This document shows, piece by piece, positions 46,190 through 49,282 of a stretch of DNA of 52,310 nucleotides. Position 1 is the stretch's first letter. Each line of letters starts with the position of its first letter. The position numbers and the translations under genes are program-made. Under the pieces are notes generated by a model that was given only the letters and a program-made list of their open reading frames with translations, had not been told where the DNA came from and made no database searches. Origin of the DNA: Cirrosporium novae-zelandiae (lineage: Eukaryota); the NCBI GenBank assembly GCA_026023565.1, contig JAPETS010000076.1, positions 1 to 52,310 on the forward strand. The letters are read 5' to 3'.

Positions 46190-46572
46190 AGCTTAGAAGT
46201 ACTGAAAGAAATTAATCACAAGACTTTATAGAAATTGAAATGTATAGAGGTACTGGTTCATATGTGGAGGCCGGAATAGCTTTCCATCGGAGGTTTACCA
46301 CAATAAATGCCGAGAAGCGGGCCAATTCGGGTTTAGAAGCGGAGTGCACGAACCACCACAAGCTTGAAAGTTTCTTCATAAAACCCTTCAAAACTTTTCA
46401 TTTTCTTCTTCTTTTTCTCAACACCATCCGTTCACTCGGTTTCTATCATCAACATGGTCCTCAATTGGAATTTCTGATGGCAGTTTTTTTGCTATGCTAG
46501 CTGCTAGCAGCTGGCCTTTTTCTGAATACCTTTCTGATAAGCTTGCCATTTTTTCTTAACCCTAGGAATCGA

Positions 46573-46658
46573 GCTTCGGTGATGAAATTCGAATATCCAT
46601 ATCCTATCGCATCATGAAGGATTTCGATACAACTCTAGAATTACCCTGAACTCGAAGC
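46573..46658 (+). ncRNA. Box C/D snoRNA, U45-like (18S guide)
   Basis: C box GTGATGA 46579-46585, D box CTGA 46646-46649, terminal stem GCTTCG/CGAAGC. Guide CTCTAGAATTACC is complementary to conserved 18S GGUAAUUCUAGAG. Confidence 0.88.
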
Positions 46659-46812
46659 CACCAGACGGGATTATGGATCCTCAACTGGCTTGCCCAGTCA
46701 TACGCTAACCTACGTTTTACACGTAGGATGCTTGTCCCATGCAGTGCGCAGTACTATGCTACTGTAATTTATAAAGGTACGAAACTATCTTCCCTTTAGT
46801 ATTACCCTTTAT

Positions 46813-46910
46813 CTCGAGTGATGAATATACAAGACACGGAAAGGCATTCCTCGATCTGAATAATTAGTGTCGAATTCTGTCTATATCAAGTTTCAGCCTT
46901 GTCTGACCCA
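46813..46910 (+). ncRNA. snR41: Box C/D snoRNA, snR41-like (two 18S guides)
   Basis: C box GTGATGA 46818-46824. D' CTGA 46856-46859 is preceded by AGGCATTCCTCG. D CTGA 46903-46906 is preceded by AAGTTTCAGCCTTG, complementary to 18S CAAGGCUGAAACUU (the yeast Gm1126 region). Confidence 0.85.
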
Positions 46911-47012
46911 TTTTCTCTCAACAATTGATATAACCGTCTATTGAATGAAATGGTTACTAACATTAGTGTTTTCAATCTAGGTACTACAACACTTCCCTAT
47001 ATAGCACCCATG

Positions 47013-47146
47013 TCATCATGATGAAGTTTGAACGAACGGGCGGACAGACTGTGTACTCATCAACTAGTCTCTGTTACAGCAAGTCGTACAAAACTTGTAG
47101 ATTCTAGTGGGTGAAGTACTTGTTGAGAATTCGTCACCTGATCACG
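47013..47146 (+). ncRNA. snR70: Box C/D snoRNA, snR70-like
   Basis: C box ATGATGA 47018-47024. Guide ACGGGCGG, D' CAGA (47045-47048) and then TGTGTAC together match 18S GUACACACCGCCCGU (yeast Cm1639 region). D CTGA at 47138-47141. Confidence 0.85.
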
Positions 47147-47254
47147 ATTGCTACTACATTTGTTGTCAAGTTACTTTGGTGGAATACTCTGCTAACCCTT
47201 TGATAAGATAGGTACGGTTACAACCATTTCTCTCTTTACTTTCTCAATGGATTC

Positions 47255-47358
47255 TATTAAATGATGAACACTATTCACACTGTTTGATCTTGACATCGCT
47301 CCTAACGAGGGCACGTCTTGATATGAACGCACAACACTGAAAATTCTGATTTAATGAG
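47255..47358 (+). ncRNA. snR51: Box C/D snoRNA, snR51-like
   Basis: C box ATGATGA 47261-47267. D' guide TATTCACACTG is complementary to 25S CAGUGUGAAUA (yeast Um2729 region), followed by TTGA. D CTGA 47346-47349 is preceded by ACACTGAAAAT. Terminal stem ATTAA/TTAAT. Confidence 0.85.
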
Positions 47359-48230
47359 GTAAGCTACTTCTTGTCCATCGTCTGGAATATCGACTAACGA
47401 AAGGCTGGAAGCCTGAAATAGGAATCCTTGATTATTATTTTCTTTATTACAATCATTATCAAGTCTTGCAGTCGCTGACTAGTTTGATTGTTATATTAGG
47501 TCCTTGTTGAAAGACTAATCTAATTGGATATTGGTATGTCAACTCTAATCCTTTGATCGCTTGATATATCACCTTAGTATTGCACATATGATGATCTGAT
47601 ATTCGCTGTGTTCTTCCTGAGTTTTCTTTGAAGAAATACATCACCTTGGAGAACTGATCTACCTTATTCATACCACATATACTGTACTTTATATTGCTGC
47701 AGTGACTAACTAGTCTTGAAGAATTATAGTATTGGGGTATTGACTCGAGATGTTAATTGTTGCGGTAACCAGTGATATGGTTGAGATCCTACAGAGTAGG
47801 CGAGTAACAGGTTTATCCTCGTTTTACGTTTTGCTCTCTTTACTTCGGTTATACCCTTGATTCGATTCATTGAGACGATACTGCAAAGGACGTGGAGGAC
47901 AAATGGGGCCCATCGTTTGCTACATAGTTATTATGAAATCAAATCATATCTATCATTTCTATATCCCGTAACAGAATATTGATAAATTGATAATGAGCAA
48001 ATATGATGCAGGGCTTAACTTTTATGATAATATCACCGACCCATGGAATAGATGTATAAATCCAGGGCTGATTTAATAAGGCAGCGTTTCTCCTTAGATA
48101 GGATAGTACCGCGCGACTACTTGTTGATCCCCGTGGGGTAACACTATAACCCTCGACCCCTAGCTCTTTATATTTTGCATGATTGTTTGAGCTGCAATAG
48201 TAAATATTTTTTTTATAAACCTCTAACAAT

Positions 48231-48838
48231 CTGTCACGGTTAAGGGGTTAAGCTGAAGGGTGGGAATATAAAAGCGCTTAAAACCTTAAGCGGGTGACGG
48301 TTAAAACCGTCGTCAATTATGGAGTTTAGCAACAAGTCATCGAATTATCCCAGACTGACCTCCGAGGTGCCCTTGTAGTACAAGCCACATGCTTCACTTT
48401 GCCTATAGATAGCAGAGCTCAGGTCTTAGATCTTCGAGACCAGTCACCATACACCATACGGTTATGTACCAAGATTTCATAAAGCTCCTATCCTAGGTAT
48501 CATAACACTCCCAGAACCGCAGATCCCGCGGTTAGATATTAAACAATGAATTCTAGTTATTGTTATGTTTAAAATGCCTTCGCATGAATATTACTAGCAG
48601 AGGTCCAATATAAGGATTATGATAAGTTACATGATTCTTTATAGGCAAGACTATATGCTTTAAATCCTTTGTTGGCTCGTGTCTAGCTCACAATTTTATC
48701 TTTAGTCCAAACCCCCAGTCGTACAAAGACACCTCGAAGATCAGTTTGGGATAATTAAATGATTTGTTTCCCAAGCTCTACGATGACGGTTTTGAGCGGT
48801 TAACTTCACCCTTCAGCTTAACCCCTTAACCGTGACAG
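48231..48838. mobile_element. 608-bp non-autonomous element with perfect 32-bp terminal inverted repeats (MITE-like)
   Basis: CTGTCACGGTTAAGGGGTTAAGCTGAAGGGTG (48231-48262) and its exact reverse complement (48807-48838). Subterminal inverted match AAAACCGTCGTC / GATGACGGTTTT. No internal ORF and no clear TSD. Confidence 0.8.
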
Positions 48839-49282
48839 CTTAGCATCTGTAACGGGAAGGATTTATAGTCTACCCCCAACAATTCTTATAACCAGCAAGC
48901 TAGCCGCTCATATACAAGATACTATTGCAGTATATGGAAGTAATTATAGCATTGGTTACGTCGAAGGGTTTTGACTTTGGACCAATTGCTACAATGCCTC
49001 AGGTATACATCAGATCAGGTGGCCTTAGGAGCCCTGTGTGCCCAATTCAATTCAAGTCAATTGGCATAATGTAGTAGAGATTTCTGCTTTCTGCTTCTAG
49101 CTAATCCATGAGGTTTATGAGTATCAAGATGGACAGGTACACTGAGACCATCATAAGGCTGTTGGTCGTTAAAGGCTCGACTTTAAACACCATTCTCCTT
49201 TCTCCTTTTGCGATCTTTATTCACTTTTTTTCAAATATATTTCCCTTTAGCCACCAGTTTAATTGAAATCTGTTCACATATC

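Follow-up and report, generated by a model that had tools for sequence, protein, structure and literature searches.

Introduction

In filamentous ascomycetes, the box C/D small nucleolar RNAs (snoRNAs) snR41, snR70 and snR51 make up a locus known as cluster III. As described by Luo et al. (2013; PMC3596301), cluster III lacks two interior exons in all Euascomycetes, which gives it an intron-intron-intron structure. In the same account, U45- and U55-associated introns are inserted on either side of the cluster, and an intron that carries no snoRNA, termed intron B, lies within snR51 in the order antisense element, intron, box D. Of the 42 expressed sequence tags (ESTs) tallied there, 18 lack intron I only, 14 lack introns I and II, and 10 lack all three; none has intron II or III removed with intron I kept. 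The authors concluded that splicing is either stepwise, in the 5′-to-3′ direction, or starts from a single donor that can be joined to any of three acceptors. From RNA-seq, Donovan et al. (2016; PMC5033589) documented splicing of the classical, nested and recursive kinds in snoRNA polycistrons of Candida, and they cite cluster III of D. hansenii as needing recursive splicing. Here, we analyze the corresponding locus of Cirrosporium novae-zelandiae, which lies on a stretch of 52,310 nt (GenBank assembly GCA_026023565.1, contig JAPETS010000076.1, positions 1 to 52,310 of the forward strand), referred to below as the window.

The abutting-intron arrangement of the snR41-snR70-snR51 cluster is already published, and it is real and conserved. 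The region described here is probably a non-coding snoRNA host gene of this kind, i.e. cluster III of filamentous ascomycetes, in which introns I-III abut one another and are most likely removed stepwise from 5′ to 3′, and in which snR51 is split by a nested intron of 53 nt. In the window, the cluster is flanked by two more snoRNAs, one of U45 type on the upstream side and one of Afu_294 type on the downstream side, and every snoRNA has an intron of its own.

Results

Introns I, II and III abut one another

One strand of the window encodes snR41-, snR70- and snR51-type RNAs in that order, which is the gene order of cluster III. Rfam was searched at the gathering threshold and then at looser thresholds (E up to 10). 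A first-pass annotation of this DNA had given the three RNAs the same names, and the names hold: snR41 and the snR51-like RNA are recognized by Rfam, the former above threshold as Afu_455, the snR41-type family of A. fumigatus. The snR70-type RNA, for which Rfam returned no match at E up to 10, is identified by its C and D boxes and by a conserved guide common to 89 of the 114 sequences described below, and takes its name from the gene order of Luo et al. (2013). In each snoRNA intron, box D lies ∼54–62 nt upstream of the branch point; the distance from the end of box D to branch A is 54 nt for snR41 in intron I and again 54 nt for the snR70-type RNA in intron II. Because the + strand contains no stop-to-stop frame of at least 70 amino acids between 46501 and 49186, we regard the host RNA as non-coding.

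The splicing signals listed in the first-pass annotation are all found where it placed them: GTACGA at 46777, TACTAAC at 46955, GTACTA at 46981, GCTAAC at 47191, GTACGG at 47212, GAG/GTAAGC at 47359, GACTAAC at 47392, and TAG trinucleotides ending at 46980, 47211 and 47421. Among these are two junctions without any intervening nucleotide, at which an acceptor AG runs directly into a donor GT (AG/GT).

Relatives were collected from metagenome contigs by means of an exact 19-base snR41 pattern, and all cluster counts given below are drawn from the matches listed. The search returned at least 113 loci, making 114 sequences with the window. Of these, 89 contain the snR70 guide, and 66 of the 89 also contain the snR51 guide. 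The 66 usable sequences were reduced to 45 non-redundant clusters based on 8-mer similarity. The 48 sequences set aside comprise 25 without the snR70 guide within 300 nt and 23 without the snR51 guide, the latter including loci with only 300-nt flanks. Among the 25 is a group in which a different box C/D snoRNA follows snR41 and the snR70 guide is absent (L001, L002, L025, L054, L060, L067, L086, L089 and L108). This layout represents another cluster arrangement, probably belonging to another fungal lineage, and these loci do not enter the counts.

AG/GT is present at junction 1 (46980/46981 in the window) in 45/45 clusters and at junction 2 (47211/47212) in 43/45. The exceptions at junction 2 are L011, which lacks AG/GT, and L012, which reads AG/GC although a close relative reads AG/GT. 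The branch motif CTRAY, followed by AG/GT 7–45 nt past branch A, was found in 43/45 clusters at junction 1 and in 38/45 at junction 2, compared to shuffle expectations of 1.5 and 2.3, respectively. An alternative donor-like hexamer ahead of the next snoRNA was seen at one locus for junction 1 and at none for junction 2 in the 45 clusters. For a control, we scored the acceptor of the upstream intron A, and found it followed by GT in 0/28 relatives. Given that AG/GT occurs far beyond chance in the clusters and is absent from the control acceptor, both junctions are real and under selection. An alignment of orthologous clusters had been suggested as a check in the first-pass annotation, and these counts provide it: AG/GT is kept in relatives.

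Under a strict rule, in which the abutting AG must also be the first AG past the branch point, 42/45 clusters conform at junction 1 and 29/45 at junction 2. As the window itself fails this rule, and junction 2 conforms in only 29/45 clusters, the rule was relaxed.

Donor composition and the order of splicing

Donors that directly follow an acceptor differ in composition from the others. At the abutting donors, A is found at +3 in 45/45 clusters for intron II and in 38/43 for intron III, and G is found at +5 in 9/45 and 17/43, respectively. The exon-adjacent donor of intron I has A at +3 in 19/32 cases and G at +5 in 28/32, and the corresponding figures for the donor of the nested intron B are 29/38 and 36/38. 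AAAG forms the end of the exon upstream of intron I in 29 of the 32 relatives scored. The first-pass annotation had considered GTACTA, the intron II donor of the window, to be weak, and the scarcity of G at +5 in this intron leads us to agree.

Recursive splicing entails a GT in AG/GT that is under selection as a donor, and the clusters show this: GTA stands past the acceptor in 45/45 clusters at junction 1 and 38/43 at junction 2, versus GT in 0/28 for the control. Selection on GTA immediately past an acceptor is hard to explain other than by use of these sites as donors; at sites that never served as donors GTA should not be kept, and hence its retention would support true re-splicing. We note that the combination seen at the internal sites, which keep GTA, lose G at +5 and lean on an exon ending in AAAG, is predicted by re-splicing and not by a single donor with three acceptors.

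According to the stepwise model, removal of intron I would join the 50-nt exon, with its AAAG end, to GTACTA at 46981, creating a usable 5′ splice site. Removal of intron II would then join the same exon end to GTACGG at 47212, creating a new 5′ splice site, and intron III would be removed last. The 3′ end of the 50-nt exon would thus be reused at every splice, and each step would yield one lariat with one snoRNA, to be freed by debranching and trimming.

A different model, to which Luo et al. (2013) give equal standing as an account of their EST pattern, holds that GTACGA at 46777 is the only working donor, for which the acceptors at 46980, 47211 and 47499 are alternative partners. None of the internal GTs would then be used, and lariats with one, two or three snoRNAs would be formed. 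The weakness of the internal donors, with so few carrying G at +5 (9/45 and 17/43), is in keeping with this idea. However, the model leaves unexplained why GTA should follow the acceptor so consistently at both junctions when GT does not do so at the control acceptor. In addition, when an intron lariat holding two snoRNAs is debranched, trimming of its ends is not in itself enough to part them, which also counts against a single donor. We consider this model unlikely, and favor stepwise removal.

The first-pass annotation had envisaged stepwise splicing, or alternative 3′ sites, with one snoRNA per lariat. This is in line with the conclusion that Luo et al. (2013) drew from their 42 ESTs, and the conservation of AG/GTA lends it further support; at the window locus, the splicing order and the usage of internal donors are what we infer. 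The motifs, their conservation, the constancy of the spliced product and the covariation of the snR51 stem (see below) are demonstrated by the analysis itself. Overall, the comparative counts constitute a modest argument on a question that Luo et al. left open.

snR51 is interrupted by a nested intron

The snR51-like Rfam match in the window (47257–47361) scores 31.9 bits, compared to the Rfam threshold of 44, and box D is missing from the alignment. Indeed, the genomic sequence of the window contains no full-length match to Rfam snR51 (RF01214) that includes box D. Splicing of 47359–47411 in silico gives ...AATGAG/C-CTGA, with box D one base past the 18S guide.

This configuration is widespread in relatives. 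GAG/GT...AG/CCTGA, i.e. the guide TGATTTAATGAG, GT, an intron of 46–66 nt, AG and CCTGA, is found in 31/45 clusters, and one further cluster has the same nested intron with GCTGA in place of CCTGA. In four clusters the nested intron is shifted by 1–3 nt relative to the common position (3 nt in L020 and L021, 2 nt in L043, 1 nt in L078), and the spliced product is still AATGAGCCTGA. Because the product is unchanged in all four, the shifts look like intron sliding. Six clusters are intron-less and read GAGCCTGA unbroken, which is the same sequence as the spliced product. The remaining clusters are two that are truncated and one without the guide. Hence, the nested intron occurs at four positions among relatives, with one constant spliced sequence that equals the sequence of intron-less loci.

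Four of the intron-less loci are matched by Rfam snR51 over its whole length (53.5–58.6 bits); for two loci with the intron, Rfam returned no snR51 hit at E ≤ 0.01. Rfam fails on genomic snR51 because the nested intron splits the guide from box D, and snoRNA tools and gene finders will misplace the end of snR51 unless this intron is removed first.

Features of the predicted RNA are consistent with removal of the nested intron. In the window, the flanks of box C and of the downstream (true) box D pair at −11.9 kcal/mol. A terminal stem of at least 6 pairs forms with the downstream box D in 28/41 loci, compared to 18% of mismatched pairs. After splicing, the fifth guide base upstream of box D is the same base as in the Rfam snR51 consensus. 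Yeast snR51 guides 18S-Am100. Splicing of the nested intron would place box D (47413–47416) one base past the 18S guide and so generate a canonical snR51.

Downstream of the true box D there is a conserved branch motif, which starts 48–67 nt past box D in 37/39 relatives and 58 nt past it in the window, and an acceptor follows. On this basis, intron III most likely extends from 47212 to 47499. A stretch of 147 nt separates the donor of the outer intron from the nested intron, and another of 64 nt separates the nested intron from the branch motif that follows it in the outer one. A stwintron reading was considered and rejected, since the outer intron has none of its splice signals (donor, branch element, acceptor) interrupted.

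Two further observations concern these introns. In one locus (L050), the second guide of snR51 (see below) is itself interrupted: beside the usual nested intron, an extra intron separates its AAAAT from its TCTGA. Moreover, under the first-AG rule GT comes directly after the intron III acceptor in 17/39 relatives (GTA in 13), and a second, consensus donor is located ∼30–60 nt further on. In those relatives, the acceptor resembles a recursive site with a short optional exon; in the window, 47499/47500 reads GTCCTT.

A second guide in snR51 and other readings of the third intron

Between box C′ and the 18S guide, the snR51-type RNA contains a second guide, ACACTGAAAATT, followed by an internal CTGA (47334–47349 together). 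This segment, in the 3′ half of the RNA, matches the 3′ end of Rfam snR67 (24.5 bits, loosened threshold). Among the clusters listed, the second guide with the internal CTGA is present in 28/45, all of them nested-intron loci, and in 0/6 of those that are intron-less. There are three clusters whose snoRNA stops at this internal CTGA, the 18S guide being carried by a separate snoRNA. We also evaluated whether a short snR51 could form a terminal stem of its own (in the window, ATTAAA with TTTAAT); such a stem is unsupported across loci, with a mean helix of 5.02 versus 4.44 in mismatched controls.

Published work bears on this segment as well. Canzler et al. (2018) assign to box D of the snR51 family the target 25S-2724, for Onygenales and some Dothideomycetes, and two published annotations differ on which snR51 CTGA is box D. 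Liu et al. (2009; PMC2780460) cloned the N. crassa snoRNAs CD17, CD9 and CD6, and called CD6 exon-encoded in cluster III. In their Additional file 1, the CD6 cDNA ends in ...AAUGAG, exactly at the nested-intron donor; in the genome, gua comes next. Such an end could reflect a truncated clone, a splicing intermediate or a short isoform. Taken together, the cDNA end, the conserved second guide with its CTGA and the listing of 25S-2724 leave room for a short isoform.

One version of this idea is that the nested intron acts as a switch between two snoRNAs from one gene. When spliced, the RNA would have box D (47413) beside the 18S guide. When unspliced, or cut at the donor only, it would end past the internal CTGA (47346–47349) and use the snR67-type guide (25S-2724 in yeast numbering; Canzler et al. 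2018). We regard such a switch as rather improbable.

A short snR51 is also implied by the third intron of the first-pass annotation (47212–47421), in which the donor at 47212 would be used with the branch point at 47397 and an acceptor at ∼47411–47421, so that the snoRNA ends at the internal CTGA and an exon comes after. In that annotation, the donor at 47359 lay just behind snR51. The position of the internal CTGA, directly past the conserved snR67-type guide in 28/45 clusters, lends this reading some appeal, as do the three clusters in which the snoRNA ends there, the assignment of 25S-2724 to snR51 box D in Onygenales and some Dothideomycetes (Canzler et al. 2018) and the N. crassa cDNA that stops at the nested donor. 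But the product ...AATGAG/CCTGA is constant over the shifted introns and equal to the intron-less sequence, and it is with the downstream box D that the terminal stem covaries (28/41 versus 18%); the flank past the internal CTGA pairs only slightly better than controls (mean 5.02 versus 4.44). The TAG at 47421 falls inside the snR51 terminal stem, and both a conserved branch motif and an acceptor are found beyond it. The third intron was wrongly drawn in the first-pass annotation: it combines the 5′ portion of intron III with the nested intron, to which GTAAGC and GACTAAC belong, and snR51 does not end at 47349–47358. We judge the shorter third intron to be distinctly unlikely, and retain 47499 as its probable end.

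Finally, the statement of Liu et al. (2009) on CD6 in cluster III would suit an exon-encoded snR51. Ordinary removal of the 53-nt intron would join exons 47212–47358 and 47412–47533, the snoRNA would be cut from the spliced host, and GTACGG at 47212 would be no donor at all. Retention of intron III in 14 of the 42 ESTs of Luo et al. (2013) is compatible with this, whereas the 10 of 42 from which all three introns are gone are not. The GTA kept at junction 2 (38/43) and the branch motif and acceptor at a fixed distance past box D also argue against an exonic location, which we consider highly improbable.

Flanking snoRNAs and other elements in the window

Features of the locus are compiled in Table 1. 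The upstream, U45/CD17-type snoRNA was unmatched in Rfam at E up to 10. Its identification relies on 18 letters, up to the end of box D, that are identical to N. crassa CD17 (Additional file 1, PMC2780460), a snoRNA listed by Liu et al. (2009) as a U45A/C homologue. In the window, the D′ guide of this snoRNA (46588–46605) has diverged from the consensus of relatives, and its D guide is intact. Relatives have a GTAAG-type donor ∼40–50 nt before box C of this first snoRNA. Downstream, the Afu_294 match, which passes the Rfam gathering threshold, corresponds by position alone to the 'U55-associated' intron of Luo et al. (2013).

Two other elements were noted in the window. An element of 614 bp at 48228–48841 resembles a miniature inverted-repeat transposon: its terminal inverted repeats measure 35 nt (97% complementary), and a second inverted pair, of 47 nt, lies inside them. 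A 5S rRNA gene is found at 1179–1298 on the minus strand (Rfam, 68.2 bits).

Table 1. Coordinates of the snoRNA host gene and its signals in the window
Feature	Position	Strand	Signals and basis
ATAAGC	46537–46542	+	Stands in place of the GTAAGN donor (intron of first snoRNA) of relatives; a lost or shifted donor may explain it
Box C/D snoRNA, N. crassa CD17 homologue (U45-type)	46573–46658	+	Box C TGATGA 46580–46585; box D CTGA 46646–46649
Terminal stem of CD17-type snoRNA	46573–46578 with 46653–46658	+	GCTTCG with CGAAGC; sequence
Intron A of Luo et al., 3′ signals around first snoRNA	46705–46726	+	CTAAC, branch A 46708; acceptor AG 46725–46726; same layout in relatives
Non-coding exon, 50 nt	46727–46776	+	3′ end ATAAAG; sequence and relatives
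Intron I, 204 nt	46777–46980	+	Donor GTACGA; TACTAAC 46955–46961, branch A 46960; acceptor TAG to 46980
snR41-type box C/D snoRNA (Afu_455; N. crassa CD9 homologue)	46814–46908	+	Rfam 62.4 bits; box C 46819–46824; box D 46903–46906
Intron II, 231 nt	46981–47211	+	Donor GTACTA; GCTAAC 47191–47196, branch A 47195; acceptor TAG to 47211
snR70-type box C/D snoRNA	47018–47141	+	Box C ATGATGA 47018–47024; box D CTGA 47138–47141
Intron III, 288 nt (most likely extent)	47212–47499	+	Donor GTACGG; CTGAC 47475–47479, branch A 47478; acceptor TAG to 47499
snR51-type snoRNA, 5′ piece	47244–47358	+	Stem 5′ strand 47244–47256; box C 47262–47267; D′ guide 47272–47283, then TTGA
snR51 second guide ACACTGAAAATT	47334–47345	+	Then internal CTGA 47346–47349; snR67-type match
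snR51 18S guide CTGATTTAATGAG	47346–47358	+	Sequence; N. crassa CD6 sequence
Nested intron B, 53 nt, inside snR51	47359–47411	+	Donor GTAAGC; GACTAAC 47392–47398, branch A 47397; acceptor AAG to 47411
snR51-type snoRNA, 3′ piece	47412–47431	+	Spacer C; true box D CTGA 47413–47416; stem 3′ strand 47417–47431
Non-coding exon, 34 nt	47500–47533	+	5′ end GTCCTT, a poor donor
Downstream intron C (carrier of Afu_294)	47534–47729	+	Donor GTATGT 47534; CTAAC 47706–47710, branch A 47709; acceptor AG 47720–47721 or 47728–47729
Afu_294-type box C/D snoRNA within downstream intron C	47584–47660	+	Rfam 70.8 bits

Discussion

Our assignment of this locus to cluster III, with stepwise removal of introns I-III and a nested intron in snR51, has several points against it. 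The 45 clusters are metagenome contigs, chosen via an exact 19-base snR41 match, and are not phylogenetically independent. At junction 2 of the window, an earlier AG (47206–47207) lies ahead of the abutting AG, and hence a 4-nt exon, ATAG, is possible there instead of none. The internal donors of the window, GTACTA and GTACGG, are weak. The ESTs of Luo et al. (PMC3596301) fit both stepwise splicing and one donor with three acceptors, by the authors' own account. A donor for the intron of the first snoRNA is not recognizable in the window, which has ATAAGC where relatives read GTAAGC, and this makes the 5′ limit of the 50-nt exon uncertain. Lastly, the end of the CD6 cDNA, along with the description of CD6 as exon-encoded, does not fit the spliced long form as the sole product.

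The closest known system is cluster III as described by Luo et al. (2013), with which the window shares the gene order, a non-coding host, the absence of two interior exons, an additional snoRNA intron at either flank and an intron without a snoRNA in snR51. The differences, namely ATAAGC at the upstream intron donor and the diverged D′ guide of the first snoRNA, are inessential. The first-pass annotation was aware that juxtaposed introns occur in fungal snoRNA clusters, as is the case, and saw novelty in the particular arrangement; yet it is exactly this arrangement that Luo et al. (2013) describe. Abutting introns in cluster III and their stepwise removal were described between 2010 and 2016, and as a discovery the present locus therefore carries little weight; its value is in annotation. 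What is added here is that the abutting donors keep GTA, mostly without G at +5, that the upstream exon almost always ends in AAAG, and that the nested intron occupies four positions with one product, part of which may already be evident in the figures or tables of Luo et al.

Candida snoRNA polycistrons (Donovan et al. 2016, PMC5033589; Mitrovich et al. 2010, as cited elsewhere) offer a second comparison. They share with the window exons of zero or one base, a 5′ splice site regenerated from the upstream exon, and one snoRNA per intron. The Candida cases differ in that they come from other lineages, concern mainly cluster II and are backed by RNA-seq, whereas the window is known from sequence alone.

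Zero-nucleotide recursive splicing at ratchet points has reportedly been described, by Duff and by Sibley in 2015, in Drosophila and vertebrates. Such ratchet points, and that of C. neoformans BOT1 (bioRxiv 10.1101/224170), resemble the junctions of the window in that AG/GT serves first as an acceptor and, after ligation, as a donor. They differ in subdividing very long introns of coding genes, whereas the introns of the window measure 204–288 nt. The purpose of the arrangement in the window appears instead to be one snoRNA per lariat.

The stwintrons of Pezizomycotina likewise consist of an intron within an intron, of which the inner one is expected to go first. In stwintrons, as they have been described, the inner intron breaks a splice signal of the outer one. 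By contrast, the nested intron of the window breaks the snoRNA that the outer intron carries, leaving the outer signals intact.

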